Below, in pieces: positions 3,185 through 25,009 of a stretch of 64,000 nt of DNA. The notes beneath the pieces are model-generated. The model was not told the origin of the DNA. It saw only the letters and a list, made by a program, of their open reading frames with translations, and made no database searches. This stretch comes from Bacilli bacterium (GTDB lineage Bacteria; Bacillota_I; Bacilli_A; RFN20; CAG-826). Position 1 is the stretch's first letter. Each line of letters starts with the position of its first letter. Position numbers and translations under genes: made by a program. The stretch is from NCBI GenBank assembly GCA_017470115.1, contig JAFUEZ010000003.1, forward strand, positions 173,064-237,063, read 5' to 3'.

Positions 3185-3376
3185 CAGGGAATACATTTTC
3201 AATTGTTTTTTTCTTTTTATAAGGAAGAAGTAGTAAAAATCTTAATAGATAAGATAATCCAATTGATAAAATTAGCATTCCTAGTAGCATCAATATGACA
3301 TTAAAAACGCCATATGTTTTATAGTCAAAAATTGGATATGGGAAGCGGATATATCCTGATTCTTGAAATGGTGCAC
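3185..3376. repeat. Copy 1 of the ~190-bp R1 repeat, a duplicated 3' end (last ~62 codons plus stop and ~12 nt downstream) of the membrane-protein gene at 24323..25009
   Basis: High identity to 24311..24508 (cagggaatacatttt...ttctttttataaggaagaagtagtaaaaatcttaatag...aaatggtgca); further copies at 7034..7226 and 22230..22402. Confidence 0.85.
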
Positions 3377-3599
3377 GAGGCCTTGAATACTACATTGGGA
3401 TTGTCGCGTTTTTGATAGTCGGTAATACTATATATAGTATTAATCAAACAAACACATTCCCTGATACGTTACATTGCGAGATTGTCGTTCGCTTAATTCT
3501 TCGAAATAGCGGTCTAAACTGAAATAATTTTAAAAAAAATCAAAAAAATGCAGATAAACCTGTCATTTCGTGGTATATTAGTGTTGTGAGGTGATTTAC

Positions 3600-4868
3600 A
3601 TGCGTAAAAAATTATATCCAAGAGAATTGTATCTAAAGAAAATCAGACCTTTTTATCATGAAAACGATTTAATCAAAGTTATTACCGGTGTTAGAAGATG
3701 TGGAAAATCATCTCTGATGCAGTTAATCGCGAAAGAGTTAATCAAAAGCGGCGTAGATGAGAACAACATTGTTTATTTGAATCTTGATAAAAGGCCGTAT
3801 AGAAGAGTTAAAAAAGCTGACCAACTTGAAGATATTCTTGCAAGCAAACTTGATCCCATTAAAGGAGATAAATACCTATTCATTGACGAAATACAAAATG
3901 TAAAAGATTTCGAAGAAGTGATTAATGCTTTTAGAGAAGATGATAATTGTTCCATTTTTATAACTGGAAGCAATGCTTATTTGTTATCTGGAGAATTAGC
4001 CACAAAATTAACTGGTCGATATTTAGAATTCAATGTTGGCACATTATCTTTTTTTGAATATATTGAAATGAAGAAATTCTTCAAAAAGCCAATCGATAAT
4101 GACTTAGAAATCGAACTTAACAACTATATATTAGAAGGCGGTTTTCCACTTGCGGTAAAATACGACACCATTCTTGACAAGCGCAATTACGTAAAAAGCA
4201 TTATTGATGAAATATATAAGAAGGACGTTAAAAAGAATAAAAAGATTAAAAACAGACACTTATTCAACCAAATTCAAACATATATCATTAACAACTTTGG
4301 TGCCACAACTTCAGTTATTTCACTTTGCGATTATTTAGAACAGGTCAATGGGAAAAGACCAAGCAATAACACTGTCTATTCATATTTAAAGATACTTGAA
4401 GATGTAAAAATTATATCTTGCTGTCATCGTTTTGACATGAAGAGCAAAACATCGCTTAACGGAGAAGAAAAATATTATCTTTCAGATTTAAGCTTCTATT
4501 TTGTAGATCAAACTGATAATAGAATCAACTACGGTCCAGTTCTTGAAAACATCGTTTATAACTATTTACTTTCTAACGATTATTCTTCTTCTATCGGGAG
4601 AATCGGAAAATTAGAAGTTGATTTTATTGCTAGAGATGAAACCACTCTTGATTATGCGTACATTCAAGTCGCAATGCGTATCTTTAATGATATATATGAT
4701 GAGAATGGAAAATTAATCACTGAAGAAAGAGAATACGCACCGTTAGAAAGAATTACCGACGGGTATCCGAGATATTTATTAACGCTCGACAAACTTTTAC
4801 AAAAGAGAAGTGGTGTCAAGCACGTGAACCTTATTAACTTCATGCTCAAAAACGAAAAATTTATATAG
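3600..4868 (+). CDS. AAA+ ATPase of the COG1373 family (AAA_14 + DUF4143 domains)
   Basis: N-terminal P-loop ITGVRRCGKSSLMQ, Walker B LFIDEIQNV, length ~420 aa; true ATG at 3600 after RBS GTGAGGTGA (the track ORF starts at a GTG at 3591). Confidence 0.75.
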   Translation: MRKKLYPRELYLKKIRPFYHENDLIKVITGVRRCGKSSLMQLIAKELIKSGVDENNIVYLNLDKRPYRRVKKADQLEDILASKLDPIKGDKYLFIDEIQNVKDFEEVINAFREDDNCSIFITGSNAYLLSGELATKLTGRYLEFNVGTLSFFEYIEMKKFFKKPIDNDLEIELNNYILEGGFPLAVKYDTILDKRNYVKSIIDEIYKKDVKKNKKIKNRHLFNQIQTYIINNFGATTSVISLCDYLEQVNGKRPSNNTVYSYLKILEDVKIISCCHRFDMKSKTSLNGEEKYYLSDLSFYFVDQTDNRINYGPVLENIVYNYLLSNDYSSSIGRIGKLEVDFIARDETTLDYAYIQVAMRIFNDIYDENGKLITEEREYAPLERITDGYPRYLLTLDKLLQKRSGVKHVNLINFMLKNEKFI

Positions 4869-4967
4869 AGATATGTTATTTTGCGAGTCTCCATATACAA
4901 AAGACATGTTATTTAAGTAGGCTCAACACTCCGCAAAGATGTATTCAATTTGTGTTTCATCCTACTC

Positions 4968-5063
4968 TATATAAGAGAATATGTTAGAAGTTTATTACTT
5001 AGCAATAAGTTTTCGGAATCATTATTAAATTTAAATGAAAAATAGTGAAAAAATAGTGAAATA
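4968..5063. repeat. R2 repeat copy 1 (~95 bp) immediately downstream of ATPase gene 1
   Basis: atataagagaatatgttagaagtttattacttagcaataagttttcggaatcattattaaatttaaatgaaaaatagtgaaaaaatagtgaaat recurs at 6833..6927 downstream of the second ATPase gene. Confidence 0.8.
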
Positions 5064-5201
5064 AGAATACATCGATATATTTTTAGTGTAAAAATGGCTC
5101 AAATTTTCCATAGGGTTGAAATTGACACATATCTTTTTTTTGATACCATTGTCGCTGGAAACATATGTTTATAACCTTTGTAGGCGAGAATATAACAAAA
5201 A

Positions 5202-5285
5202 TTGGTGCAAAACCATTAAAAAGTCACTCGGAATTTGGTGCAAAACTATTAAAAAGTCACTCGGAATTTGGTGCAAATTGTATTT
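5202..5285. repeat. Tandem direct repeat of a 30-bp unit (2 full copies + 1 partial) ~50 bp upstream of ATPase gene 2
   Basis: ttggtgcaaaaccattaaaaagtcactcggaa / tttggtgcaaaactattaaaaagtcactcggaa / tttggtgcaaattg read directly from the sequence; the track ORFs 5116..5301 and the 5' extension of 5165..6685 are translations of this repeat. Confidence 0.8.
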
Positions 5286-5332
5286 ACTGCTCTTCATTTA
5301 AGTATTATACTATTTTCGAGGAGACTGCATTT

Positions 5333-6685
5333 ATGGATACAATATATTTTAGAAGAAAAATAGATAAAAGATTATCAGAATGGTTTGAAAGCAAGGACCA
5401 TTCACCAGCATTAGTTTATGGAATAAGGCAATGTGGGAAGAGCAAAAGCATAGAACAATTTGCAAAATCTCATTTTAAAAATGTAAATTCTATAGATTTT
5501 TGGAAGACACCAAACGCCAAGATAGCATTTGAAGAATCTCTTGAAGTAGACGCAATAACAAAATCTTTAACTGGTTTATTTCCTTCTTTTAAATTCGTGC
5601 CTCACGAAACAGTTTTGATATTAGATGAAATTCAAGATTGTCCTAAAGCAAGGCTGGCGTTAAAAAGTTTTAAAAAAGATGGAAGGTATGAAATTATCGC
5701 TAGTGGATCATATATTGGATTAAATATTGACAGCAGCAGTGTTCCAAAACCAAATGGCTCTGAAGATTTTCTTGAAATGAAAACAATGGATTTTGAAGAA
5801 TTTTTATGGGCGATGGGATATGACGATGCTTTTATAAATGATTTATTAAAACACTTTAAAAACAAAACAGAAGTTCCTAAGGCTATTCATCTAAAAATGA
5901 AACAGCTATTCAATGAATATGTTTGTGTTGGAGGATATCCAGAGGCACTAATGAAGTTCATTAATTCAAATAGTTACTCTGAAGCATTTAAAAAAGTAAA
6001 GAGTCTTATTATTGACATAAAAGGTGACCCCGCAAAAAGGAAAAACGAAAAGGAAGAATTTGAATATACTGCAACAGAGATTGCCAGAATTCAAAAGGCG
6101 TTTGATTTAATAGCGGCGTTTGTTGTTAAAGATAACCAAAGATTTATCACTTCTAAAATAAGTGGCAACAGTTATCAGAGAAGCGATGCGGTTAATTATT
6201 TATTAAATTCTTCTGTTGCATATAAAGCGTTTAATGTGGAAGTTCCGTCATTACCTTTGGCGGTTAGAAAAATTGATGCTGAATTTAAATTATTTTACGC
6301 CGATATAGGAATAATGATAAATGAACTTGGTTTTGATGTTATTAAAGGGATTTTACAAAACGGATTAAGTCTAGGGATGAACAAAGGATACTTATATGAA
6401 GCTGTTGTTGCAGATTCGCTTTACAAAGCTAATGTTCCTCTATTCTATTTTGGAAAAGAAAGTGGCCTTGAGGTTGATTTAGTTATTTCTTATAACGGAG
6501 ATGCGACATTAATAGAAGCAAAATCAACAACAGGTAATACTAAATCAAGCAAACAAATAATGAAAAACCCAGATCATTATGGAAAAACTAAATTAATAAA
6601 AATCGGTGATTACAACATTTCAGAAACTGGAGATATAACAACAATTCCACATTACTTAACATTTGTATTAGGAAAAGAATTATAG
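5333..6685 (+). CDS. Second COG1373-family AAA+ ATPase (AAA_14 + DUF4143), a divergent paralog of 3600..4868
   Basis: P-loop VYGIRQCGKSKSIEQF, Walker B LILDEIQDCP; start moved to the ATG at 5333 (MDTIYFRRK...) because the 5' part of the track ORF is the translated tandem repeat. Confidence 0.7.
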   Translation: MDTIYFRRKIDKRLSEWFESKDHSPALVYGIRQCGKSKSIEQFAKSHFKNVNSIDFWKTPNAKIAFEESLEVDAITKSLTGLFPSFKFVPHETVLILDEIQDCPKARLALKSFKKDGRYEIIASGSYIGLNIDSSSVPKPNGSEDFLEMKTMDFEEFLWAMGYDDAFINDLLKHFKNKTEVPKAIHLKMKQLFNEYVCVGGYPEALMKFINSNSYSEAFKKVKSLIIDIKGDPAKRKNEKEEFEYTATEIARIQKAFDLIAAFVVKDNQRFITSKISGNSYQRSDAVNYLLNSSVAYKAFNVEVPSLPLAVRKIDAEFKLFYADIGIMINELGFDVIKGILQNGLSLGMNKGYLYEAVVADSLYKANVPLFYFGKESGLEVDLVISYNGDATLIEAKSTTGNTKSSKQIMKNPDHYGKTKLIKIGDYNISETGDITTIPHYLTFVLGKEL

Positions 6686-6727
6686 TGTTGTCACTGGCGA
6701 ATTGCTAAACCATACTAGTTAGTTTTT

Positions 6728-6830
6728 GTATAACTAAAAAGATAAGCAATAATTTGTGACAATCCTTAAAAGGTAAGCAATTTGGCAGTTACAACCATCT
6801 AAAAGGTAATCGATAAACTTGCACACAGCA
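6728..6830. repeat. Three imperfect ~33-bp direct repeats between ATPase gene 2 and R2 copy 2
   Basis: ctaaaaagataagcaataatttgtgacaatcc / ttaaaaggtaagcaatttggcagttacaacc / ctaaaaggtaatcgataaacttgcacac. Confidence 0.5.
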
Positions 6831-6832
6831 CC

Positions 6833-6927
6833 ATATATTAGAGAATATGTTAGAAGTTTATTACTTAGCAATAAGTTTTCGAAATCATTATTAAATTTAA
6901 ATGAAAAATAGCGAAAAAATAGTGAAA
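6833..6927. repeat. R2 repeat copy 2
   Basis: Near-identical to 4968..5063. Confidence 0.8.
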
Positions 6928-7033
6928 TTATAATGAAAACATAACTATGATTTAAAAATGTCCAAAACATTGTTTAGTAGCCTATAATTTGGCTTTGTTT
7001 TCACAATTATGGACAACATTTTTCACTTTGTAT

Positions 7034-7226
7034 TAGGGAATACATTTTTATTTTTCTTTATTCTTTTTATAAGGAAGAAGTAGTAAAAATCTTAATAGAT
7101 AAGATAATCCAATTGATAAAATTAGCATTGCTAGTAGCATCAATATGACATTAAATACGCCATATGTTTTATAGTCAAAAATTGGATAAAGGAAGCGAAT
7201 ATATCCTGATTCTTGAAATGGTGCAA
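7034..7226. repeat. R1 repeat copy 2 (3'-end fragment of gene 24323..25009)
   Basis: tagggaatacattttt...ttctttttataaggaagaagtagtaaaaatcttaatagataagataatcc...ctgattcttgaaatggtgcaac. Confidence 0.85.
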
Positions 7227-7414
7227 CCCGTGCCGTATAGTCTTATTGTTTTTAGCCGGTTTTAACCAATTTCCTAATAGATTTATCTATTAGAAGAAAA
7301 CCATTAAACAGCACAAATGAACAAAAAAGTGCCGTTTTTATGTTAAAATGGTAAAATTATAAAAAAAGTACCAAAGTATTGCAAAAATGTAATATTATGG
7401 TTATATTATTATAT

Positions 7415-8149
7415 ATGAAACAGTTACCTAAGCTATTTTCTTTTAATGAATTAAAAGATACCTACAAGACGGCGTCTGATTTTTCTGTGTTTGTTTATCG
7501 TGCAATAAAAAGAGGAGATATAAAGAAAGTTAAAAGAGGCCTATATGCATTAGTTAATCCGTCGACTGGAATGATCTTTGTTACTAAATTCCAAATAGCC
7601 AGTCATTTATTTGATGATGCTTATTTCTCTTATCATGACGCTCTTGAATATTACGGCTTAGCAAATCAGTCATTCGTTTCTATATTTACTTATTTAACTA
7701 AGTCACATGCTCGTGATTTAGAATTCGAAGATGTTACATATAAAGCTAAGAAATCCAATAGCGATTTATTCATACGCGATAGAATGAAAGAAGAAGGGAT
7801 ACGTGTAGTATCTTTAGAGCGTGCTATCATAGATTCAATAGACTGTTTATCTTTGGCGGGCGGCTTAGAAGAAGTGGAATACGCTCTTGATTACTGCCCT
7901 AAACTAAACCTTAAAGATGTACAGTTACTCCTAAAAGCCTATGATAAGAACCTTTTATACCAGAAGGTTGGCTATTTATTCGAGAAACACTTTGGTAATG
8001 ACATACCTGAAGAATTTTATAAAGTGTGTTTAAAACATTCAGGAAATACAGTGATGTATCTAGAATGCAATCCTGGTGAAGGTAAATTAAACGCTAAATG
8101 GAAACTAATGATAAAAGAGGAAGGATACCTACCTAATGAACTATTCTGA
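7415..8149 (+). CDS. AbiEi/AbiGi-like protein (putative antitoxin/transcriptional regulator partner of the AbiEii nucleotidyltransferase)
   Basis: Paralog of 22589..23323 (shared KRG.YALVNPSTG.IF.TKFQIASHLFDDAYFSYH, SLERAI.DSID); lies directly upstream of and overlaps an AbiEii-type nucleotidyltransferase gene; start set at the ATG at 7415 by alignment with the paralog (track ORF starts at TTG 7379). Confidence 0.5.
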   Translation: MKQLPKLFSFNELKDTYKTASDFSVFVYRAIKRGDIKKVKRGLYALVNPSTGMIFVTKFQIASHLFDDAYFSYHDALEYYGLANQSFVSIFTYLTKSHARDLEFEDVTYKAKKSNSDLFIRDRMKEEGIRVVSLERAIIDSIDCLSLAGGLEEVEYALDYCPKLNLKDVQLLLKAYDKNLLYQKVGYLFEKHFGNDIPEEFYKVCLKHSGNTVMYLECNPGEGKLNAKWKLMIKEEGYLPNELF

Positions 8150-9078
8150 AGACTACATTTCTAATTTTGGAAAACAAACTGGATTTATCAATGCTAATAT
8201 TGAAAAAGTTATTAGGCTTTTAGATATCCTTGCTTTTATCGATTCTAATTTAGATCCATATCATGAAAAGCTTGTCTTAAAGGGCGGCACTGCGATTAAT
8301 TTAATAATTACAAACCTCGCTCGTTTAAGCGTTGATATCGATTTAGATTATATCGGTAGCCTTGATAAAGAGAAGATGAGCGTTGATAGAGACGCTATTA
8401 TGTCAGCTCTAGATAACTTTATGTTAAAAGAGGGTTACGCCGTCTCACTAGAAAAATCTAGAAGTAGTGTTATCTTAGCAAGCAGAAATTATTCTTATAC
8501 AAACGATTTTGGCAATAGAGATAACATCAAGGTTGAAATTAATTTTATTGATAGAATTCATGTTTGCCCAAGCACCAAAAAGAAAGTTAAGTATTTCGAG
8601 AAAGAACTAATGGTGCATACTCCTTTTAGAAGCTGAGCTTTTTGGAATGAAAATTGCCGCTCTTATTGATAGACATAAACCAAGAGATTTGTTTGATATT
8701 TATAAACTAAAAGGATACATGCCTTATCTAGATAAGGATAGAGTTAGAAAACTTGCGGTATTCTATTTATCATTAGATGGCATTTTTGAGCTCAACGAAG
8801 CTAATTTTGATAATGTTAATAAAATTACACAAGACTCAATAAAAAAAGAATTACGGCCGGTCCTTGCTAAAGGAAACATGTTTGATTTAAATATCGCAAA
8901 AGAAGAAGTCATTAAATTCTTGAAGGATTTGCTCGTACTCACAGATAACGAAAAGAAATATCTAATAGAATTCTCAAATGGAAACTTTGACCCATATCTT
9001 TTATTTGAACCAAATGACGCAGAAAGTGCCACTAAACATCCAATGGCTAAGTGGAGAGCGGCTAATTTAAAGAGGTAG
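8136..9078 (+). pseudogene. AbiEii/AbiGii-family nucleotidyltransferase (DUF1814-like) disrupted by a frameshift near 8620-8640 (track ORFs 8136..8636 and 8647..9078)
   Basis: N-terminal NTase motifs LKGGTAINL and RLSVDIDLDY; colinear with the intact paralog 23310..24248, but the frame changes at ...MVHTPF|RS* and the +1 frame continues LLEAELFGMKIAALIDRHKPRDLF. Confidence 0.7.
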
Positions 9079-9082
9079 CCAC

Positions 9083-10426
9083 ATGGACATGAAACAAGTG
9101 GAAGGGTTTTATTATTATCAAGACGAAAAACACGCCACTGTTTTAATCGTGGATTATCTGAAACATTATGTTCAAAAGATAATGAATTGCCCTCCTGGAG
9201 AATGCATGAATGATGAAGCCATGGAGTATATTTCGGTTAATACAGCAACCATCATGCTTGAAGGTTTTAGTAGAAAGTTTTTCGTGATTCAAGAAATTAA
9301 TTATGGGAACGAGGAGCCTAGCGAAGAACAAAAAAGAAAATTTCATGTATTCGATGAGTTCAATAAACGCTATACAAAACATTTGAAATACATCAAAGAA
9401 GAAGCAAGACTCTATCAGATTTTAAATGAGAAGCGATTCACATATACCGAAATTAACGATAGACATATAGAATCGCTACATAAAGTTGATCCTACTCTAA
9501 TCCATAGTTTTTTGAGTACATTAATTCCTGATGATTTGCCAGAAAAAGAAAGGACTGTGGCTTTGGCTAATATCATGAAAAACAGAGATAAAAATGGCTT
9601 TGATGATTTAATGAAAGAGCTTCATAAAGATAAAGCCTATGAAGAATCTAATGAATTATCTAAAAAAATACAGCCAGCATTCATGGAGTTTCTTAAAGCT
9701 TTTGTTGATGTTGAACTTCTCATGGCCAAAGAATATTCCCTTTATACCGACAAATATAAGAAAAAGATGGATGAATATGCTGATAAAGGTTTATTCCTTT
9801 ACTGTCTAAATACTCCAGATTTGCCAATAGATGCCGAAGATATCACAATGGATGACATCTATAATTATTTTTTGAATGATGATGCAATGTTCCTTCAGGG
9901 AATGTTTGAAGTATTCATCAAGCATGGCGATGTTGGTGGTGAAATTAATAAAAGAGAAGCAGATGATATTGTTGCATCTTATAACCTATTAATTGAAGGA
10001 AAATATTGGGCCTCGCTTAGAAACCTTTATGCTTTAATTGATCATCACCATAAATTGTGCGCAGGTATATTTAATGGCTATGAAGAAGCTAAGAAAGAAT
10101 TTAAAAACGGCAAGGAAAGGTCTGAATACATTTGTAAATTATTCACTGATACCAAGGTTTATTATTACGAGGCTGTTTGGCATAAACTAGATGCCGCGAT
10201 TGAAGAAATGAATAAGGGTTGTGGAGACAGATTTGTTTCTAGAAACGCTATTATTCATGGTGATTATGAAAAACCTGATGTTAATCCGCAAGCCAAAGAT
10301 GTAATTAATGTTTTTATGATTTACATAACAATGAGAATGATTATTGATAGATTAACTAATATCGAGGAGATCATTAAGGAATCAAATATTTATTATTTAA
10401 GTTATAAGACAAAAGGATGGCTTTGA
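9083..10426 (+). CDS. Hypothetical 447-aa, predicted all-alpha protein with no recognisable motif; start overlaps the end of the AbiEii pseudogene
   Basis: Long intact ORF with RBS AAGAGG; its stop is followed by a hairpin that sequesters the RBS of the next gene. Confidence 0.55.
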   Translation: MDMKQVEGFYYYQDEKHATVLIVDYLKHYVQKIMNCPPGECMNDEAMEYISVNTATIMLEGFSRKFFVIQEINYGNEEPSEEQKRKFHVFDEFNKRYTKHLKYIKEEARLYQILNEKRFTYTEINDRHIESLHKVDPTLIHSFLSTLIPDDLPEKERTVALANIMKNRDKNGFDDLMKELHKDKAYEESNELSKKIQPAFMEFLKAFVDVELLMAKEYSLYTDKYKKKMDEYADKGLFLYCLNTPDLPIDAEDITMDDIYNYFLNDDAMFLQGMFEVFIKHGDVGGEINKREADDIVASYNLLIEGKYWASLRNLYALIDHHHKLCAGIFNGYEEAKKEFKNGKERSEYICKLFTDTKVYYYEAVWHKLDAAIEEMNKGCGDRFVSRNAIIHGDYEKPDVNPQAKDVINVFMIYITMRMIIDRLTNIEEIIKESNIYYLSYKTKGWL

Positions 10427-10442
10427 TATATAATAAATATTA

Positions 10443-10485
10443 GCAACTCCGTTAGTAAGACAACGGTCTGAGGACCGGAGGTTGC
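10443..10485 (+). promoter_or_regulatory. Stem-loop (gcaactccg ... cggaggttgc) that pairs the Shine-Dalgarno GGAGGT of the downstream HTH gene
   Basis: 9-10 bp complementary arms read directly from the sequence; ATG of the downstream gene at 10490. Confidence 0.4.
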
Positions 10486-10489
10486 TAAA

Positions 10490-10708
10490 ATGGATTCGAG
10501 CAAAAGAAGAATCGACAAAGAACTAGCTTCGTTTATCCGCATGTGCTATCGACATTCCTGTAAAACTCAGGAAGAATTAGCATTTGCGATAGATGTCGAA
10601 CCTAGAACCTTGAAATATTACTTCAGTGGTGAAAGGAAGCCTAGTCAAAAAACGTTATTGAAGCTACTCAAAGTTGCAAATATTAACGGTAAGGATATCC
10701 CTTTTTAG
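10490..10708 (+). CDS. Small helix-turn-helix (XRE-like) DNA-binding protein, 72 aa
   Basis: RBS GGAGGT; QEELAFAIDVEPRTLKYYFSGERKPSQKTLLKL resembles an HTH_XRE helix-turn-helix. Confidence 0.5.
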   Translation: MDSSKRRIDKELASFIRMCYRHSCKTQEELAFAIDVEPRTLKYYFSGERKPSQKTLLKLLKVANINGKDIPF

Positions 10709-10795
10709 GGGTATTTTTATTATTTTATGAACCACTTGGCTCATTGTGGATATTTTCTTTGGTTAATAACATTAATACGAAAGGAGGTACTCAAA

Positions 10796-11107
10796 ATGTC
10801 AAAATACAATACCATTGATGTTTGGAACAAGGTGTTTGGCTCCGCTCAAGAAGTCAGAGATTACACTGGCAGGCTAATGAAAAAGTCAGCCTGTGGAAAT
10901 ACTAGAAGCCAATATCATCCAACATTAGATCACATTAGGCCATTATCAAAAGGTGGCTCAGATGTACTAGACAATATTATAGTTTGCCATCGTGATACCA
11001 ACGAAGAAAAAGCCGATGCATTCCCACACTGGACAGCAAACGGCAAAAGATATCATGCGGTCAGAGTCAAAGGCTCTAGAGTGGCATACGACATTATTGA
11101 AGACTAG
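10796..11107 (+). CDS. HNH endonuclease, ~103 aa
   Basis: RBS AAGGAGGT 8 nt upstream of the ATG at 10796; HPTLDHIRPLSKGGSDVLDNIIVCHRDTNEEK = H-N-H motif with Cys/His ligands. Confidence 0.65.
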   Translation: MSKYNTIDVWNKVFGSAQEVRDYTGRLMKKSACGNTRSQYHPTLDHIRPLSKGGSDVLDNIIVCHRDTNEEKADAFPHWTANGKRYHAVRVKGSRVAYDIIED

Positions 11108-11116
11108 GTGACTGAT

Positions 11117-11260
11117 ATGGGACCTAAATGGTGCATGAATTACGATTCCGGCGAATACGAATGGATTGATGAAAACGGATTTAGTTGGGATCAAGGCGAA
11201 TACGTCTATAATTGGGATCGTAGCGTATACGATGACGATGATGAAGACGATGACTGGTAA
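11117..11260 (+). CDS. Small acidic 47-aa ORF (MGPKWCMNYDSGEYEWIDENGFSWDQGEYVYNWDRSVYDDDDEDDDW); speculative
   Basis: ATG 10 nt after the HNH stop; W/D/E-rich; too short for the ORF track. Confidence 0.2.
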   Translation: MGPKWCMNYDSGEYEWIDENGFSWDQGEYVYNWDRSVYDDDDEDDDW

Positions 11261-11987: not shown

Positions 11988-11991
11988 TTAA

Positions 11992-12026
11992 ATTGGGCCT
12001 TGTTGAAATATACAAGGCCCTTTTTA
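11992..12026 (+). terminator. Rho-independent terminator
   Basis: gggccttgt-tgaaatat-acaaggccc hairpin followed by TTTTT. Confidence 0.7.
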
Positions 12027-12092
12027 AGTATCTGATTTTCTTAATTTATTATTTTTTCATTTTTAAGAAGATATATTTTTTTGGAAAATTAT

Positions 12093-12131: not shown

Positions 12132-12195
12132 CCTGCAAAACAGACATATTTTTGAATAATATGAGATATTTGCAGGTTTAAATAATTAATCTTTT

Positions 12196-17096: not shown

Positions 17097-17189
17097 TTTT
17101 TTTAAATCCTTTCGTGATATAAATATATTATATATTTATATAATTTTCATATTTTTGGCATACTCGACTATCATTTTGAACTCATTAAC

Positions 17190-17220
17190 AAAAACCGCTT
17201 TAGAAATTCTAAAGCGGTTC
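17190..17220 (-). terminator. Rho-independent terminator for the minus-strand GH3 gene
   Basis: aaaaaccgctttagaa-attc-taaagcggtt; T-run on the minus strand. Confidence 0.65.
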
Positions 17221-17248
17221 GGAAGAGGGAAATATTTAAAATTAATTA

Positions 17249-20089
17249 TTATTCTTCAGTAGGAGCTAATTTTTTATGTTTATTATAGCGCAAGATTTCA
17301 AAGACTAAGAATCCAGCAGAAGCAAGAATTCCAGCACTTGATACACAAATAAGTGTAACCATAATTGGTGGCCATGGATTGTTGACATCTTTTAAAGCGA
17401 CAAGTCTATTATTTTGAACTGAAGCAATAGCATATAAAATATGTTTTGCAGCAGTTTTCATTAACTTAACGCCATTATCTGTATTCTTTAATGAATCATC
17501 AATTTGTTTAACAGCAACTGAAAGCATTAAATCAGTTCCACCAACAACACCTTTAGAAGCGGTCATCCAACCACCACAGAAATTGTCGGTAATAATCGCA
17601 CCTTCAAGTCCCCATTCATTACGTAAAACTTGGACATTAAGTGCATAATTTGCTCCGCCCCAATTTCCATTAATCCACATATAAGAAGTCATTAAGCCGG
17701 TAGCTTTAGCTTTCTTAACAGGAATTTCAAATGCTTTGAGGTAGATTTCTCTTGCTGTTTGTTCTGTTAAATAACAGTTTTCTTTGTTAGTTCTATTTGC
17801 TTCAACATCATTAAATGCGAAATGTTTAAGGAAGACATAAACACCATTTGATTGGACACCTTTAACTTCAGCAGCACCGATTAAACCAGCAAGTAGTGGA
17901 TCTTCACTGAAATATTCAGCGTTTCTTCCACCAAATGGAGTTCTATGGGTATTTAAGCCTGGCGCATACCATCCAGCAGTACCTGATGCATTAGCTTCTT
18001 TGCCTATTGTTTTACCTAATCTTTCAATTAATTCGGTATTGAAAGTAGATGCCATAACAACTTCAGTACAATATGACATACAGTGCGTTGATTCATTCAT
18101 TGAAGTTTTAATGTAATTTGATAAGCCAAAAGGACCATCAATATCAACCATTTGAACTTTACCAATTGATTTAATTGCAGCATTTCCCCAGCCACCACTA
18201 CCAATTAAAGTAGATAAATCATTCATTGAAAGTTCGCTAATAAATTCTTCCCATTTTGGATCATCGTATTCGACACCCCACATATCTTCAAATGAATATG
18301 TTTTCGATGCATTTGTAGTAGTTGATTCAAATTCAGCACCTTGATATGCAGGAGTTTTCTTTGCATCAGTTACTAAATATTTATATTCTTCACTATTGGA
18401 AGCGATGATTCTAACGTTTGTTGATCTACCATTTAGTGTAACAGAAGTATAAGTAGGACGTAGAATTGTTGATGCATCATCAAAATTATTTGCTCTTGTA
18501 ATGGTGTTTATACCATTATCAATATCAATTAAATTTCCTAAATTTCCTTTATTAAATTGGTTTTTAGCAGCGTTTTTGTCACTAGATCTCTTGTTTTCAC
18601 CACTATAAACAACTTTATTTAATGTACTTTCAAATGTATCATAATTGAGTAAAGGATCCTTCCATCCATGTGCATTGTTTGATAAATAGAATTTATAATT
18701 TCCTTCATCAAGAACATATGCACCTTCTCCATCATTAGCTGTCTCATCATAACTTGCTAAATCTTCTAAATTGATTTCAAGTTCGATTTGTTCAGAGGCA
18801 CCTGGTGCAAGTTTAGAAGTTTTAGCAAAAGCACAAATAACAACTTTTGATTTTTCTACTCCACCCGTGACATAAGGTGTTTCTGCATAAATTTGAATAA
18901 CATCTTTTCCAGAATATTCTGTTCCTTCATTTTTGACATTAACTTTAAAAGTTACTTTATTATTTAAAACAGTAGGTGTTTCAGCGAAACTTTGAGAGAA
19001 TGTTGTATAAGATTTTCCATATCCAAATGGGAATTGAACAACATCGTTATATCCTGTATAAGGTGATTTATCCCAATATCCGACACTATCAGCAGTTTCA
19101 TACCATCTATATCCGAAATAGATTCCTTCATTATATTCAGTCCATCCACCTGCATCAGCATATGAGCCGTTTTTATCATAAACGTAATTGTAAGTTGATG
19201 AATTGTAATAAGTTGATCCGGTTTTTAAATCATAAGCCCATGTATCAACTAGTCTTCCAGAAGGAGAAACATCTCCGTTTAATATTGTTCCAATTCCTGG
19301 ACAACCAGCAGCACCTGGTCCTCCAATCCATAAGCAAGCATCAACTCCATATGTAGGATCTTCAAAAATTCCTACTTCCATAGGATATGATGTATTTAAT
19401 AAAACAGTAGTGGTGAATCCCTCCTCTTCTAATTTTTGAAGAAGTGCTTTTTCATTTGTTGATAAAGCTAAATATGATTCAGTACCAGAGGTTCCAAATC
19501 CAGTTCTAGAAATATCGCCGCCTTCTCCAGCAAGTCTTCCGATGACGACTACAGCTTGATCACTATATGTTTTTAGTTGATCAAAAGCAGTATTTCCAGT
19601 GTATTTATCTAAAGCAAGTTCAGGAACTGCAACTGATTCTCCGCCTTCGTGGACATCAGTATCAGAAGTAGTGGTATTTTTTGAGATTAAATCATAAAGA
19701 TTTGAATTAATCTCGAAACCAACACTTTCTAAACCTTGCTTTAGTGTGTATTCAATGTTACCTGAAGAAGCAGCACTTCCTGAAGCGTTATAACTTAAAT
19801 CAACTGATTTGACACCAAATAAATTGATTTTTGAATTCTTTTGAAGTGGAAGTGTGTTTGCGTTGTTGAAAAGAAGAACCGAACCTTCTTCAACGAGCTC
19901 TTTTGAAATATTGACTGCATCTTCGTGAGCCTCTTTTTGTAGTTCTTCATCAATTTGAGTTTCTGAAAGTGCAGCTCTCATCGTGTTGCCATAAGCGTTA
20001 TCAACAAAGAAAGTTGCCCCAAGTAAAATTCCAAAAATTGCAATTAATGGAGCATAGAGGAAATATTTTGGTTTTCTTAATTTTTTCAT
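17249..20089 (-). CDS. Glycoside hydrolase family 3 (beta-glucosidase/beta-xylosidase-like), membrane-anchored (paralog 1 of 3)
   Basis: GH3 motifs LKHFAFNDVEANR and EGAIITDNFCGGW (nucleophile Asp), Fn3-junction FPFGYGKSYTTF; N-terminal signal anchor and C-terminal TM helix + basic tail; start at ATG 20089 (MKKLRKPKYF) preceded by AAGGA. Confidence 0.75.
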   Translation of the reverse strand: MKKLRKPKYFLYAPLIAIFGILLGATFFVDNAYGNTMRAALSETQIDEELQKEAHEDAVNISKELVEEGSVLLFNNANTLPLQKNSKINLFGVKSVDLSYNASGSAASSGNIEYTLKQGLESVGFEINSNLYDLISKNTTTSDTDVHEGGESVAVPELALDKYTGNTAFDQLKTYSDQAVVVIGRLAGEGGDISRTGFGTSGTESYLALSTNEKALLQKLEEEGFTTTVLLNTSYPMEVGIFEDPTYGVDACLWIGGPGAAGCPGIGTILNGDVSPSGRLVDTWAYDLKTGSTYYNSSTYNYVYDKNGSYADAGGWTEYNEGIYFGYRWYETADSVGYWDKSPYTGYNDVVQFPFGYGKSYTTFSQSFAETPTVLNNKVTFKVNVKNEGTEYSGKDVIQIYAETPYVTGGVEKSKVVICAFAKTSKLAPGASEQIELEINLEDLASYDETANDGEGAYVLDEGNYKFYLSNNAHGWKDPLLNYDTFESTLNKVVYSGENKRSSDKNAAKNQFNKGNLGNLIDIDNGINTITRANNFDDASTILRPTYTSVTLNGRSTNVRIIASNSEEYKYLVTDAKKTPAYQGAEFESTTTNASKTYSFEDMWGVEYDDPKWEEFISELSMNDLSTLIGSGGWGNAAIKSIGKVQMVDIDGPFGLSNYIKTSMNESTHCMSYCTEVVMASTFNTELIERLGKTIGKEANASGTAGWYAPGLNTHRTPFGGRNAEYFSEDPLLAGLIGAAEVKGVQSNGVYVFLKHFAFNDVEANRTNKENCYLTEQTAREIYLKAFEIPVKKAKATGLMTSYMWINGNWGGANYALNVQVLRNEWGLEGAIITDNFCGGWMTASKGVVGGTDLMLSVAVKQIDDSLKNTDNGVKLMKTAAKHILYAIASVQNNRLVALKDVNNPWPPIMVTLICVSSAGILASAGFLVFEILRYNKHKKLAPTEE

Positions 20090-20114
20090 AGTAATTTTCC
20101 TTATTAATAGAAAA

Positions 20115-20139
20115 TAGGCGCTCACTAAAAGTAAGCGCC
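20115..20139 (-). terminator. Hairpin between lipoprotein gene and GH3 gene (possible attenuator/terminator)
   Basis: aggcgctcac-taaaagt-aagcgcct inverted repeat. Confidence 0.35.
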
Positions 20140-20158
20140 TTTATTATGTTTTTAGTGA

Positions 20159-20686
20159 TTATTCAGGAATAGCGTCGTATACGTATGTAAATGATTTTTC
20201 AGCAAATGTAATTGTTCCTGGATTGAAGTTATCAGCGATTGTTGGATCTTCTTCCATAGTAACAGTTCCTTGTTTGCCCCAGACTGATTCATATTCAGCA
20301 AATGAAGAACCGTAAGCAGTAGTTTTTGAACCGCTTGTTGGAGCAGCTAATTTGTAGACGTTTTCTGAAACAAGTGTAGCAGCACCTTCATATTTTCTTT
20401 CGCAGTGGAAATACATTGCATTTGATTTGTCTTCAACACCTTGATCGATTGCTAAAGCAACATATTTTTCACCTGTAATTTTGACTTCAACGGATGCTGA
20501 AACCATTTGCATCATTGCCCAAGCATATGCTGAGCCTGTAGCATTAGTTTTAATTGGTAAAGCTGTATCAGCTGCTTCATCACCATCTGTGAATGTAAGT
20601 TTAGCACTAATACTCTTTTCTCCACAGCTAGCAAGTGTAGCTAATAAAGCGATTGAAACTAATGATGATTTGATTAAATTTTTCAT
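20159..20686 (-). CDS. Small lipoprotein, unknown function
   Basis: MKNLIKSSLVSIALLATLASCG lipobox. Confidence 0.55.
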   Translation of the reverse strand: MKNLIKSSLVSIALLATLASCGEKSISAKLTFTDGDEAADTALPIKTNATGSAYAWAMMQMVSASVEVKITGEKYVALAIDQGVEDKSNAMYFHCERKYEGAATLVSENVYKLAAPTSGSKTTAYGSSFAEYESVWGKQGTVTMEEDPTIADNFNPGTITFAEKSFTYVYDAIPE

Positions 20687-20866
20687 TTTTATTTTCTCCT
20701 TATTTTTGCCTTTTGGCTTGTGATTCTAATTTAGTTAAATCAAATTTAAAAAGCAAAAAAATGGCACGAACGACAAAGAATGAGAACTGATTAGCAGCAA
20801 AAACTCATATATATAAAAAAGGAAGTAATTATATTTTATCAACTTCCTTAAAATTCTTCTAACTTA

Positions 20867-22009
20867 TTAAAGCATCAGATTTCTGATATTTTCAATTTGA
20901 GTAGAAGTGACACCTATATCAAGTAGTGCCGCTTCACATTTATCTTTAAATGTTTCACCATTATAGGCTTTAATTTCATTTATGAATTTTGTATCACGAA
21001 TCATTGTAGCCGTACGTCTTCCTCCAATTAAACCAAAATTTGAGAAAGCATAATCAAAAATACAACTATCAAACGGTACACCAAGTACTCCATTATATAA
21101 CATTGAAATCATTCCAGTTCTATCTGTTCCAATGTTGCAATGAAAGCAAAGTGGATAATTTGATTGATCGCTTAGACAATCAAATATTTCTTTTAAAACT
21201 CCTTTATTATCTTCGATACTGATTACTTGGAATGGAAACCATTTATATTCTAATTCTTCAACAACAGAAGAAGTACCATCTAATCCACCTGTTTCGTCGT
21301 ATTTGTTATTTCTTAAATCGACTTCCGTTTTCATTTTTAAAGTTTCAATCAATGCTTTTTCGCCTTCTTCAGTAATTTCTTTATTAATTTCTTTAGTTCC
21401 TGAAGTATTGAATCTGCCACATCTATAGATCAAACCTTGTTTTGTTCTTTTTCCATCAACTGTGACCCAGCCTCCTAAATCTCTAAAATTTGTGACGCCA
21501 TCAACTCTCACATTTCTAGGAGCCATAAAAGAAGTTTGAAATGCTTTTATTTCAGCGGTAGCTAAATTCTCTAACGAAGTAGCAGTTCTATAATAATATT
21601 TTGAAGCAATGAATAAATTTTCTAGTTTGATTGAAGAAGCGGATGTTTCAAAAATTTCTGAATCTTCAAAATTTTCATTTAAAGAAAGTTCAAAATAATT
21701 CTTTTCTTCACCATTAAGTTTAATTTCGTATTTTTGAGGGAAGCTTTTTTCTTCTTTTCCATCTGCTCTATTATCAAGATTTAGCGTTTCATCATTCAAG
21801 AAATCTTTTTGAACATCTGTGTGTATTTCATAAAGTGGGATGCTTTCATCTCTTGATTCGCCTGTTGCAAATTCAGGTTGAACAGCATAAGTAATTGGTG
21901 TTCTATCTTCTTGATTGTCTTCATTTGGACTTCCTTTATCACTCGAAGCACCACAAGAAGTAAGAGCAAGAGCGCCTAAAATTAAAGCAAGTGAAAATAA
22001 TTTTTTCAT
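20867..22009 (-). CDS. Lipoprotein with C-terminal protein-tyrosine-phosphatase-like domain (Y_phosphatase3 family, CX5R)
   Basis: Lipobox ALTSCG; NFRDLGG motif and active-site signature HCNIGTDRTG (C-x5-R); paralog of 43343..44563. Confidence 0.6.
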   Translation of the reverse strand: MKKLFSLALILGALALTSCGASSDKGSPNEDNQEDRTPITYAVQPEFATGESRDESIPLYEIHTDVQKDFLNDETLNLDNRADGKEEKSFPQKYEIKLNGEEKNYFELSLNENFEDSEIFETSASSIKLENLFIASKYYYRTATSLENLATAEIKAFQTSFMAPRNVRVDGVTNFRDLGGWVTVDGKRTKQGLIYRCGRFNTSGTKEINKEITEEGEKALIETLKMKTEVDLRNNKYDETGGLDGTSSVVEELEYKWFPFQVISIEDNKGVLKEIFDCLSDQSNYPLCFHCNIGTDRTGMISMLYNGVLGVPFDSCIFDYAFSNFGLIGGRRTATMIRDTKFINEIKAYNGETFKDKCEAALLDIGVTSTQIENIRNLML

Positions 22010-22229
22010 TTTTTTACCTCCATTACTATTAAACTTATAAAAGTTTATTAGTGCAAAATAAGTGGCACGAATGGTAATAATAGCGGCACCAATAACAATT
22101 TTAAATGATATAAATTAATATTTTTGTGTTTGTATATGCGTCATATTAAATGTCAATTTTTGAACTTTGCAAAAAATATTTTGGATTTGCAGGGTTTTTG
22201 AAAGAAAGCACTTGATTTTTAAGTTATTT

Positions 22230-22402
22230 GTCTTTATTCTTTTTATAAGGAAGAAGTAGTAAAAATCTTAATAGATATGCTAATCCAATTGATAAAATTA
22301 GCATTGCTAGTAGCATCAATATGACATTAAATACACCATATGTTTTATAGTCAAAAATTGGATAAGGGAAGCGGATATAGCCTGATTCTTGAAATGGTGC
22401 AA
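22230..22402. repeat. R1 repeat copy 3 (~97% identical to the native 3' end at 24311..24508)
   Basis: ctttattctttttataaggaagaagtagtaaaaatcttaatagatatgctaatccaattgataaaattagcattgctagtagcatcaatatgacattaaatacaccatatg...aaatggtgcaac. Confidence 0.85.
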
Positions 22403-22588
22403 CCCGTACCGTGTATACTTATTGTTTATAGTCTATTTTAGGGACTCCTTTTATAGGTTTTACTTATAAAAATGAGAGAACTATTGAGCTGATTTGCTTA
22501 AAAAATACCTGATTTTCAGCCAAATATAAAATATACCAACTTACAAGTAAAACTTTACATATGTGTTTAGTTGTGCTTAAATTATGGT

Positions 22589-23323
22589 ATGAAAACTCTA
22601 CCAATAATCTTTAAATATGAAGATATAAAGGAATTTTATCCAAATGTAGCAACCTTTTATGCTTTTGTTGATCGCGCTTCAAAGCGTGGAGAGCTTAAAC
22701 AAATAAAAAGAGGAATATATGCACTAGTAAATCCATCTACAGGAAATATCTTTGCAACTAAATTTCAAATAGCAAGCCATCTATTTGATGACGCTTATTT
22801 TTCATATCATGAGGCTCTAGAATACTATGGTTTAGCTACTCAATCTTTTGTTTCTTATTTCACTTATCTAACGCATGTATATGTTGATGATGTGGTTTTT
22901 GAAGACGTAATATATCATTCAAAAAAGAGTGGATATGATTTAGAAATACTTAACCGTATAAAAGAAGAGGATATTCGTGTTGTTTCTTTAGAACGCGCAA
23001 TAGTGGATTCTATAGATTCTCCTTCTCTAGCGGGTGGTCTTGAAGAAATAGAATACGCTCTTAGTAATTGTCGTAGACTTAATATAGATAAGATTGAGAT
23101 GCTATTAAAGCATTATGATAAAACATTCTTATATCAGAAAATCGGATACTTATTTGAAAAACACTTTGGCGAAGAAATACCGGAATCGTTTTATAAATTA
23201 TGTTTATCTAAGATAGGTAATAAGATCAATTATTTTGAATCTAAGGTTGGCCACTCTAAGTTAATACTTAAGTGGAAATTAATGGTGCCATCAGAAAGGA
23301 GCATGCCTGATGAATTATTCTAG
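22589..23323 (+). CDS. AbiEi/AbiGi-like protein (intact copy)
   Basis: Paralog of 7415..8149; overlaps the downstream AbiEii gene by 14 nt (operon). Confidence 0.5.
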   Translation: MKTLPIIFKYEDIKEFYPNVATFYAFVDRASKRGELKQIKRGIYALVNPSTGNIFATKFQIASHLFDDAYFSYHEALEYYGLATQSFVSYFTYLTHVYVDDVVFEDVIYHSKKSGYDLEILNRIKEEDIRVVSLERAIVDSIDSPSLAGGLEEIEYALSNCRRLNIDKIEMLLKHYDKTFLYQKIGYLFEKHFGEEIPESFYKLCLSKIGNKINYFESKVGHSKLILKWKLMVPSERSMPDELF

Positions 23324-24248
23324 AAAATATATTGAAGTGTTAAACAAAGATAACAATTTCATTCTAAATAATCTTGAAAAAGTAGTTAGGCTTTTAGATG
23401 TTCTTAAATTTATATCCACTGAATTAGATCCATATGGGGATAAACTTATTCTTAAAGGTGGTACCGCCATTAATTTGATGTATACCAATTTAGCAAGATT
23501 AAGCGTAGATATCGATTTAGATTACATTGGTTCACTTGATAAAGAAAAAGCTAGCCAAGATAGAGACAAAATCATGGACGCTTTGGATAATTATATGCTT
23601 GGTGAAGATTACGAGATTTCTTCTAGATCTAGAGGAAGTTTTATTTTAGCCAGTAGAACATATACATTTACCAATGCTTCTCATAATAGAGACAATATTA
23701 AAGTTGAGATCAATTTTATTGATAGAATTCACATTGATCCAAGCGTTAGAAAGAAAATTAATTACTTTGAAGAAGAAGTAATGGTACAAACTCTTGTTTT
23801 GGAAGAGCTATTTGGAATGAAGATTTGTGCTTTAATCGATAGAAGCAAACCAAGGGATCTATTTGATGTTAGCAAATTAAAAAAGAACATGATGTTCATC
23901 GAAGAAGACAAATTACGAAAGATGATGGTGTTTTATATGTCTTTAGATGGCATCTTTGATATTAACGAGCATACATTTGACTCAATTAGAGCAATCAGCC
24001 AAGAAGACATAAAAAAAGAATTACTCCCAGTATTAGCTAAAAACTCGAAATTTGATTTAATTGAAACTAAGGAAGAAGTTATTTCTTTCTTAATCGAATT
24101 GCTAGCGCTCACTGATGGCGAAAAGAAATATCTAATAGAATTCTCAAAAGGTAATTTTGACCCATATCTTTTATTTGAACCAAATGATGCAGAAAGAGCC
24201 GCTAAACATCCAATGGCTAAGTGGAGAGTGGCTAATCTTAAAAAGTAG
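23310..24248 (+). CDS. AbiEii/AbiGii-family nucleotidyltransferase toxin (DUF1814-like), intact 312 aa
   Basis: LKGGTAINLMYTNLARLSVDIDLDY nucleotidyltransferase signature; C-terminal region colinear with the frameshifted copy at 8136..9078. Confidence 0.7.
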   Translation: MNYSRKYIEVLNKDNNFILNNLEKVVRLLDVLKFISTELDPYGDKLILKGGTAINLMYTNLARLSVDIDLDYIGSLDKEKASQDRDKIMDALDNYMLGEDYEISSRSRGSFILASRTYTFTNASHNRDNIKVEINFIDRIHIDPSVRKKINYFEEEVMVQTLVLEELFGMKICALIDRSKPRDLFDVSKLKKNMMFIEEDKLRKMMVFYMSLDGIFDINEHTFDSIRAISQEDIKKELLPVLAKNSKFDLIETKEEVISFLIELLALTDGEKKYLIEFSKGNFDPYLLFEPNDAERAAKHPMAKWRVANLKK

Positions 24249-24322
24249 TAGGGGGCTTCTATGGCGTATCTTAATAATCACTATGCCCTCAATTCATCCA
24301 CCCTATATCAGGGAATTCATTT

Positions 24323-25009
24323 TCATTTTTCTTTATTCTTTTTATATGGAAGAAGTAGTAAAAATCTTAATAAATATGCTAATCCAATTGATAAAATTAG
24401 CATTGCTAGTAGCATCAATATGACATTAAATACGCCATATGTTTTATAGTCAAAAATTGGATAAGGGAAGCGGATATATCCTGATTCTTTAAATGGTGCA
24501 ACATCTCCTAAAATAAGTGATCTAATAATAATGAATATACTATAAATAAATGGATATATGGTTGTTTCTAAAGGAGCATATTTTGTTATTTTTTCTTTAT
24601 TAGAAAATAAAAAGAAATCTAATGAAAATAAAAGTGGAGAAGCAAGATGCAATATCCAAACTTGAATACGCGCCCAAAAGGCAGGAGTAAAGATATTTTG
24701 ATTAGGAGTAAAAACATTAAAGAAGATTGCAGTTATTGCTAAATATATAAAAGTCATGAAACTTAAATTAACAAATCTCTCTTCTTTTTTATTAGTTATT
24801 TTATTTTTAATATCTGTTATTGATGAATAGATTAAAAGTAGAGCTACAATAACAGCAAATATATTTGTTTGATTTGTAAAGAAAACATAAAACTCATTAT
24901 GAATATCTGGAAACCAACCAATCCAACTAGCTAAAATACCAGCAGTTGTAATAGATACATAAACTATCCTATAAATTAAATGAAAGATTCTGTTTTGTAA
25001 AATATTCAT
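24323..25009 (-). CDS. Multi-pass membrane protein (possibly Pr6Pr/FAR-17a-like); its 3' end is the source of the R1 repeats
   Basis: 228 aa, ~6 hydrophobic helices; 3'-terminal ~190 bp (24311..24508) duplicated at 3185, 7034 and 22230. Confidence 0.6.
   Translation of the reverse strand: MNILQNRIFHLIYRIVYVSITTAGILASWIGWFPDIHNEFYVFFTNQTNIFAVIVALLLIYSSITDIKNKITNKKEERFVNLSFMTFIYLAITAIFFNVFTPNQNIFTPAFWARIQVWILHLASPLLFSLDFFLFSNKEKITKYAPLETTIYPFIYSIFIIIRSLILGDVAPFKESGYIRFPYPIFDYKTYGVFNVILMLLAMLILSIGLAYLLRFLLLLPYKKNKEK

Follow-up and report, generated by a model that had tools for sequence, protein, structure and literature searches.

A strain-variable accretion site for recombinase-free gene cassettes in the 3' part of a Pr6Pr-family gene of a rumen Bacilli bacterium

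Composite islands of staphylococci, built of staphylococcal cassette chromosome (SCC) elements, are found at the 3' end of rlmH (orfX), and the pseudo-SCC units among them often contain no recombinase, rely on Ccr in trans and are bounded by repeats of about 15-18 bp. Integron arrays and clusters of attC sites lacking an integron integrase (CALINs) consist of small, often single-operon cassettes, which are free of recombinase genes as well; the newest cassette is next to the insertion point, and toxin-antitoxin and defence genes are common cargo. Modules at dif (pdif) sites and integrative mobile elements exploiting Xer (IMEXs) are likewise recombinase-free, often encode toxin-antitoxin pairs and are moved by the housekeeping Xer recombinases at short sites at their ends. 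In streptococci, gene 3' ends are the sites where integrative and conjugative elements (ICEs), integrative and mobilizable elements (IMEs) and cis-mobilizable elements (CIMEs) accrete in tandem (Pavlovic 2004; Bellanger 2011; reviewed in PMC5704250). Many further hotspots of horizontal gene transfer and defence in bacteria have no mobility genes; their construction is an open question, and their turnover is thought to be scarless, by double crossover (PMC5635113; PMC10250203). Here we describe a locus of an uncultured rumen Bacilli bacterium at which the last 178-201 bp of a gene for a 228-aa membrane protein of the Pr6Pr family recur, always in the orientation of the gene, between cassettes of accessory genes. 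Cassettes have accreted in the 3' part of this gene to an extent that varies among strains, and the locus keeps a readable record of its construction, because the order and the topology of the events are legible from the gene-end fragments.

The locus lies in a 64-kb stretch of DNA (the window) that is part of a 270-kb metagenome scaffold. Repeats were detected and their identities quantified with a repeat finder, MAFFT alignment and blastn. Domains were searched with Pfam and PADLOC in the open reading frames (ORFs) of at least 100-120 aa, and this search covered 74 kb, namely the window and 10 kb to its left (positions 1-10000 of L009; contigs used for comparison carry L numbers). The window contains no N and is 100% identical to scaffold_37 of the ENA assembly ERZ28656003. 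An assembly of a second sample, ERZ28655269 (L014), contains a 100% identical stretch of 12.9 kb, which includes the end of the third cassette (E3), the adjoining repeat copy (c3), the AbiE genes and the Pr6Pr gene and extends beyond it, and the same arrangement is present on five contigs.

The closest known cases are the CIME accretion arrays and the SCC/pseudo-SCC composites. As in CIME arrays, arrivals are inserted at a repeat beside an intact gene such that arrays are formed, and the cargo includes toxin-antitoxin and defence genes; here, four repeat copies and the native gene end share one orientation, and the long copies have a common inner boundary. However, CIMEs are decayed ICEs or IMEs and usually lie beside an integrase-bearing element, whereas neither such an element nor a relic of one was found here. 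The units at this locus go down to a single AbiE operon that is flush with the crossover point, and the repeat consists of about 190 bp of host coding sequence, while CIME repeats are tens of bp long. Relaxase, conjugation and phage genes, the first two of which would mark a derivation from ICEs or IMEs, were not found by Pfam and PADLOC among the ORFs of the window. The SCC composites resemble the locus in that units were inserted serially into the 3' end of a chromosomal gene, always at one point, and in their accessory and defence cargo, but the target here is a Pr6Pr gene in another host, a Ccr-type serine recombinase was not among the domains detected, and the repeats measure 178-201 bp. 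In contrast to both CIME and SCC arrays, a cargo module of this locus bears its own conserved terminus.

An integron-like nature had been considered in an earlier note on this DNA, and the logic of the array does resemble that of integrons, with small recombinase-free cassettes stacked at one point and the newest presumably nearest to the gene. The sequence features do not fit: neither IntI nor attI was recognized, a Phage_integrase-type domain being absent from the window and the 10 kb to its left, the repeat is a piece of a host gene, and the cargo orientation is mixed. By eye, nothing resembled an attC site convincingly; the junction heptamers fit RYYYAAC loosely (GTGCAAC and GGCCAAC at 6/7, ATCCAAC at 7/7), and no GTTRRRY partner was present within about 130 nt of the junctions. 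The absence of recombinase genes from the modules also recalls the Xer/dif systems. Inspection by eye of X (the inner boundary, see below) and of the 32-nt module terminus for a 28-bp XerC-spacer-XerD site gave a loose resemblance and no convincing site. Transposons and insertion sequences (IS) do not match either, as the repeat finder gave no terminal inverted repeats for the AbiE modules and the window contains no transposase. With the hotspots that lack mobility genes, the locus shares a strain-variable defence island at a core gene and signs of homologous exchange in the flanking gene, but it differs in having duplicated gene-end scars and a fixed inner boundary, which therefore point to additive single-crossover insertions.

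Gene-end repeats and their boundaries

The protein encoded by the target gene scored 43.2 bits against the NCBIfam model NF038065 (cutoff 30) and thus belongs to the Pr6Pr family; its match to Pfam AgrB stayed below the cutoff (20.1 versus 23). Full-length homologues have identities of 47-94%. In the relatives with 47% identity, the gene is found in the context pepM29-gene-secG-uvrB-prfB-secA, and no island is present, and in alleles with 67% and 79% identity its 3' end adjoins pyrG or a trxB-like gene. The target gene is a core gene. Among the GTDB species representatives, only one relative was found (52% identity), and it contains no repeats.

The repeat, termed R1, had been recognized in the earlier note, and its positions, its length of about 190 bp, the common orientation and the inclusion of the stop codon were all reproduced by repeat search, MAFFT and blastn. 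The same holds true for the gradient of identity to the native end, which rises from c1 over c2 to c3, the copy nearest to it (92.5, 94.9 and 96.6%), and for a short remnant near 12093, now delimited to 40 nt and termed c2b. The stop codon region is contained in every copy, and in c1 the stop codon is destroyed by a 1-nt deletion. When translated, the long copies start with ...(V)APFQESGY and can be read to the stop codon, except for c1. This copy is the most diverged and decayed one, with 91-93% identity to all others, whereas c2, c3, the native end and the repeat of contig L012 are mutually 96-98% identical. A metagenome scan with a 29-mer from the repeat yielded two contigs, both with intact genes, and thus R1 is not a dispersed repeat family; dispersed copies, together with an invariant cassette content, were what the note had named as fatal to its proposal. 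The pentamer AGCGG, which is the Chi sequence of Bacillus subtilis and may not be the Chi of this host, occurs at about 24462-24466, at a distance of about 33 nt from X within the repeat; c1 and c3 contain it as well, and c2 has AGCGA instead. A DNA end at X would meet AGCGG in the correct orientation, and the pentamer could be there by chance (roughly 6% for 180 nt at this base composition).

All three long copies end at one point within the gene, GGTGCA| in codon 170, which we call X. The joins read GGTGCA|CGAGGCC at c1 and GGTGCA|ACCCGT at c2 and c3, and the intact gene reads GGTGCA|ACATCT, such that two unrelated cargo sequences meet the gene at X within 2 nt. The outer boundaries fall into two classes. 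In class I, the stop codon is followed by 25-36 nt that c1, c2 and the native end have in common and that contain GTATCAGGGAATAC; in class II, comprising c2b and c3, the homology begins at the stop codon. A fixed inner boundary together with variable outer boundaries is expected if the crossover always falls at X and the length of the gene end differs from element to element. The two copies that flank cassette E4 differ on their outer sides (class II at c3, class I at the native end), and these unlike flanks exclude a long target-site duplication.

Comparison with other strains revealed the direction in which the array may have grown. The native downstream flank of a 94% allele (L003) could be aligned with the left flank of c1 (the 3148-3197 region) over 231 nt with 91% identity, and for this reason c1, to judge from the alignment, is the oldest copy and the original gene end. 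The retained flank and the decay of c1 agree with the suggestion of the note that each event regenerates the gene end and displaces the old copy outward. Its expectation that the cassette content differs between strains was borne out by L012, in which the right end of E1 (6935-7030, the 96 nt left of c2) directly adjoins an intact gene that continues past X, and therefore the array of this strain stops after E1, without E2-E4. The 96-nt piece is in turn preceded by the istA gene of an IS21 element. In contrast, a circular intermediate with both gene ends, which had been proposed because of a similarity between the regions around 22090 and 25131, lost its basis: the 26-mers match only when indels are allowed (E about 0.1), and in blastn-short the E value of the 22090/25130 similarity equals those of several unrelated 12-mers, as expected by chance. 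Altogether, the interpretation of the note was partly supported, and the common inner boundary, the separate acquisition of two AbiE units and the recurring left terminus of the AbiE module with its scar were added to it.

Table 1. Features of the array and its target gene (window coordinates; M33, S01 and S41 denote PADLOC PDC families)
Feature	Position	Strand	Description
Target gene	24323..25009	-	Intact gene, 228-aa Pr6Pr-family membrane protein (NCBIfam NF038065)
Insertion point X	about 24500-24502		Codon 170 of 228 in the target gene
Current gene end	24300..24502	-	R1 beside the gene and class I downstream flank with TATCAGGGAAT motif
R1 copy c1	3176..3375	-	92.5% to native end over 201 nt
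R1 copy c2	7031..7227	-	94.9% over 197 nt; class I flank; joins AbiE-module terminus at X
R1 remnant c2b	12091..12130	-	92.5% over the 40 nt nearest the stop; left boundary at stop codon, right side truncated
R1 copy c3	22226..22403	-	96.6% over 178 nt; class II left boundary, right end X
Cassette E1	3376..7030	+	Two PDC-S01 (AAA_14-DUF4143) ATPases, 3591..4868 and 5165..6685 (Pfam/PADLOC)
Cassette E2	7228..12090	+	AbiEi' 7379..8149; broken AbiEii' 8136..8636 and 8647..9078
E2, further genes			447-aa unknown 9083..10426; HTH_3 10490..10708; HNH 10727..11107; Zn-ribbon 11796..11987
E2, non-coding stretch	11262-11795		
Cassette E3	12131..22225		DUF6273 lipoprotein, LytTR response regulator and GHKL kinase, lipoproteins, esterase, GH3, Y_phosphatase3 lipoprotein
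Cassette E4	22404..24299	+	Intact AbiEi 22571..23323 and AbiEii 23310..24248 (Pfam/PADLOC)
Distal island part, outside the R1 array	227..3096	+	PLD-DpnI_C nuclease and DUF2075/PDC-S41
Conserved left terminus of the AbiE module	22400..22431	+	CAACCCGTRCCRTRTA...TTATTGTTT; E2 counterpart 7224-7255
13-mer CGTATCAGGGAAT	3180..3192	+	Just beyond the stop codon
Inverted copy of CGTATCAGGGAAT	3456-3468		Perfect, 13/13; X+80, inside E1
Related 13-mer copies	7030-7043	+	
	24305-24318	+	
	7269-7279	-	X+42, inside E2

The AbiE modules and their left terminus

Two of the four cassettes begin with AbiE genes, and the arrangements of c2 with the AbiE' unit of E2 and of c3 with the AbiE unit of E4 are colinear. 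While the repeats are 94-98% identical, the AbiE units share only about 65%. Moreover, the E4 module (22400-24252) has closer copies elsewhere, with 95% identity to a copy in another metagenome-assembled genome of Bacilli (L031-33, GCA_017468925.1) and 90% identity to a copy in a third context (L023-30). Therefore, a duplication of repeat and AbiE unit in situ is ruled out by the divergence (96% for the repeats versus 65% for the units), and the two AbiE cassettes were acquired separately.

The left end of the AbiE module, CAACCCGT... (CAACCCGTRCC...), is flush with X, with 0 nt between them in E4. Its terminal 32-mer is AACCCGTRCCRTRTANWCTTATTGTTT; between E2 and L030, 31 of these 32 nt are identical, whereas the genes have only about 70% identity. 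At two other loci, the module starts with the same nucleotides and ends at the stop codon of abiEii, and its left flanks are unrelated (GGGC|CAACCCGT and GATC|CAACCCGT). The microhomology that would be possible at the junctions is limited to 2-4 nt, CA or CAAC. In L031, the terminus adjoins 52 nt that recur in direct orientation, with 98% identity, as codons 57-74 of a membrane-protein gene (DUF1295) whose start lies 400 bp beyond the AbiE module on its downstream side. This scar is of the type seen in the array, but it was left on another target and stems from the 5' part of the gene.

A further motif was found at the junctions. In the 64-kb window, TATYAGGRAAT occurs five times without a mismatch, and all of these matches are at junctions, three in the class I flanks and two inverted within E1 and E2. 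The expectation is about 0.5 exact matches per window by a rough, composition-based estimate, with the motif having been defined after the matches had been seen.

Several smaller features accompany the AbiE modules. A palindrome lies about 50-70 nt within the left end (7275-7294, 22450-22472, about 5066-5085 in L030 and about 9150 in L034). Its letters vary between the copies and its symmetry is kept (CTAATAGAT..ATCTATTAG, TTTTATAGG..CTTATAAAA, TTATAGGT..ACCTATAA), and the breakpoint of homology in L034 coincides with its centre; it may be an AbiEi operator or a recombination hotspot. In L031, three direct repeats of TCAGTTTCGTGGGAAA with a spacing of about 35 nt are present at about 11190-11290, upstream of the DUF1295 gene, and a DUF559-like pseudogene tail, recognized only by eye, lies between abiEii and these repeats. 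The 447-aa protein encoded after the broken abiEii' of E2 has no family match and, by eye, contains an RNxxxHG (HEPN-like) motif. A 391-aa protein is encoded in the same position after abiEii in L023 (10949-12124); the two proteins are not homologous, and both contexts may represent three-gene variants of AbiE.

Candidate mechanisms of cassette capture

The absence of an integrase or transposase, as claimed in the note, was confirmed for the window and the 10 kb further left: Phage_integrase, resolvase, rve and other transposase domains were not present in the ORFs. All units lack integration and transfer genes in their ORFs of at least 100 aa, and Pfam detected no recombinase relic in the scanned frames of the two largest non-coding gaps. 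One of the stretches without genes, the 530 bp at 11262-11795, is devoid of ORFs and matched no family in any frame, and no other place in the array is big enough to conceal a gene relic. An IS3-like transposase relic at 11472-11600(-), suggested by the string 'DITHI', had no Pfam support in any frame. An integrase-bearing related element was not present at any fetched locus. The repeat, the 32-mer, the Pr6Pr protein and AbiEii had zero matches in IMG/VR, and c3 plus AbiE had zero matches in PLSDB and INPHARED; with all three databases blank, a carrier phage or plasmid was rejected. The G+C content is flat at about 30%, and base composition thus shows no trace of foreign DNA.

Judged from the repeat copies and their boundaries, the topology of the array is that of a serial, additive single-crossover (Campbell-type) insertion of DNA carrying a replacement gene end. 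The cassettes would have arrived serially as DNA circles or a topological equivalent, each bearing the last ~180 bp of the gene and 0-36 bp of downstream flank, and each would have joined the chromosome at X (GGTGCA|, codon 170). The incoming copy would become the new gene end, and the former end would persist beyond the cassette as a dead remnant. The presumed order of insertion is E1, E2, E3 and E4, with the newest beside the gene, and the current gene end would have been brought in by E4. The join at X may be catalyzed by a site-specific recombinase acting in trans, whose gene would lie in another part of the genome or on a helper element; the ~180-bp repeats would then be homogenised by ordinary homologous recombination, which could also shuffle, delete and export cassettes. 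We tentatively favour such an enzyme over RecA plus illegitimate joining, because unrelated cargos meet the gene at one nucleotide, because the AbiE terminus recurs against three different flanks, because the terminal 32-mer is over-conserved relative to the genes, and because the inverted motif brackets the repeat.

A number of observations weigh against this preference. No recombinase was identified within the 74 kb of the 270-kb scaffold, and free circles or empty sites were not observed. Repeats of 180 bp suffice for RecA alone to integrate a circle, and the repeat of L012 is a mosaic, c2-like on the left and c3/native-like in the middle, which indicates that crossovers occur inside R1 and not only at X. 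The 101-nt scar at the second ATPase gene of E1 and the 52-nt scar in L031 have unrelated repeats, which is not predicted by a single att-specific enzyme. Furthermore, a universal AbiE terminus had to be rejected, since contexts of the L034 and L038 types break further inside, with homology starting 64 nt and 126 nt further in, respectively. TATYAGGRAAT with one mismatch occurs at chance level (13 observed versus 11 expected). The X|E1 junction could derive from X|AbiE by module replacement, and the junctions are then perhaps not independent. Lastly, the left junction of E3 is not at X, because the adjoining copy, c2b, is truncated.

Without a dedicated enzyme, a rare illegitimate event at a microhomology could have made the first truncated gene end beside a cassette. 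RecA alone could then account for the growth and the reshuffling of the array, either through unequal crossover or because circles from sister strains, with the same gene end and another cassette, were integrated by single crossover, with the repeats serving as portable homology. Exchange or gene conversion fits repeats of 180-200 bp that are 94-98% identical next to cargo of about 65%, and the mosaic in L012 and the junction microhomology of just 2-4 nt are also consistent with this route, as are the like scars on unrelated local repeats of 101 and 52 nt; the remnant c2b shows that illegitimate truncation inside R1 does occur. However, random illegitimate joins are not expected to repeat at fixed points, whereas here two unrelated cargo types were joined at the same nucleotide (+/-2 nt), one AbiE left terminus is found beside three unrelated left flanks, the terminal 32-mer is conserved far above the downstream genes, and the motif is found again, inverted, to either side of the repeat. 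We consider the RecA route a serious rival, albeit the less likely of the two. A descent from tandem IMEs, ICEs or prophage-like islands, i.e. CIMEs in the strict sense, whose own integrase and transfer genes have since been deleted, would explain a topology that equals the accretion of ICEs, IMEs and CIMEs at gene 3' ends (PMC5704250). The broken AbiEii' and the decayed c1 document that damage accumulates at the locus, and the non-coding stretch of E2 could be a relic of lost genes. Nevertheless, all four units are without a recombinase, even the newest, E4, with its 1.9 kb and a repeat identity of 96.6%, and translated frames of the two largest gaps gave no relic with Pfam, nor were relaxase, conjugation or phage genes found. 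In addition, the E4 terminus is 0 nt from X and is the same elsewhere, such that a deletion would need to have stopped precisely at these two points, which makes this descent very unlikely.

Two further explanations have next to no probability in our view. One of them regards the fragments as a silent reservoir of 3'-end copies, from which gene conversion would vary the C-terminus of the protein, in the manner of the partial-gene repeats of Mollicutes. It would account for fragments in gene orientation, three of which can be translated in frame over about 60 codons, but the copies differ from the native end by only 1-3 amino acids, unrelated cargo of 2-10 kb lies between them, the ancestral flank is retained at the outermost copy, and one copy is a 40-nt stump. 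The other, hardly more credible, is an assembly artefact, in which strain variants downstream of the gene were concatenated via the shared repeat. The source is indeed a metagenome scaffold, and Logan contigs of the same strain end within or near c1 (L011). Against this, R1 followed by non-gene sequence at X cannot arise by collapsing variants that share the whole gene, and the copies are 2-9% apart and each unique at assembly k-mer lengths. A chimera was rejected because of the gap-free sequence, the identity of the second sample over 12.9 kb (c3, E4 and gene) and the five concordant contigs.

If an enzyme in trans acts on a defined cassette terminus, Mollicutes-like gut Bacilli would possess a new system of cassette capture; if RecA acts alone, the locus would be a clean natural case of short portable homology turning the end of a core gene into a growing defence array. 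Either answer is testable from existing rumen metagenome reads. A more far-reaching version, which we regard as decidedly doubtful, is that small defence operons such as the AbiE pair are true recombinase-free mobile cassettes. Their terminus of about 32 nt (CAACCCGTRCC...) together with a TATYAGGRAAT-type motif would be the site for an undescribed enzyme in trans, insertion would occur in membrane-protein genes after ...CA| with a replacement gene part carried along, and arrays would grow beside the gene with a host-gene fragment in the place of attC.

Cargo and neighbouring genes

The cassettes range in size from 1.9 to 10 kb. The contents listed in the earlier note were verified with Pfam and PADLOC (Table 1); however, the block with the PLD nuclease and DUF2075 had to be placed outside the array, because a repeat is present only on its right side. 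This distal part of the island extends at least 10 kb to the left of the window, where it contains type II restriction-modification and PDC-M33ABC genes and no bounding repeats. In the 10 kb of L009, a D12 methyltransferase and an HNH nuclease (type II restriction-modification-like), PDC-M33 A, B and C and two unknown proteins of 329 and 573 aa are encoded, and neither a recombinase nor a copy of the gene-end repeat is present.

In E1, direct repeats of 101 nt (4968-5068 and 6834-6934, 95% identical) lie on both sides of the second ATPase gene, whose true start is likely the Met codon at 5333. This scar resembles those of the main array in type, and its sequence is unrelated to R1. The right edge of the repeat (6934|6935) equals the end of an IS21-family element with a 402-aa IstA-like gene in L012 (1469-1563). 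Just upstream of the likely start codon of this ATPase gene, two tandem 33-nt units (94% identical) and a partial third one are found at 5199-5264.

Sets of a permuted GH3 protein (C-terminal domain first) and lipoproteins occur three times in the window (17249-22009, 35919-44563 and 51019-54042), and two of them are accompanied by a Y_phosphatase3 lipoprotein. Because of this recurrence, E3 seems to be a paralogue of common carbohydrate modules of the chromosome and not defence DNA of foreign origin.

The 8.2 kb directly upstream of the target gene (25053-33222) encode an MFS_2 transporter, GH31, a TAL_FSA transaldolase, an NAD_binding_2 reductase, a 439-aa isomerase-like protein, DUF4867 and a TauE exporter. 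By its gene content, this cluster looks like a sulfoquinovose pathway of the sulfo-TAL type. It is a strain-specific indel: L003 has 48 nt in its place, without a flanking repeat, and the Pr6Pr gene of this strain is located beside the counterpart of 33223-34310.

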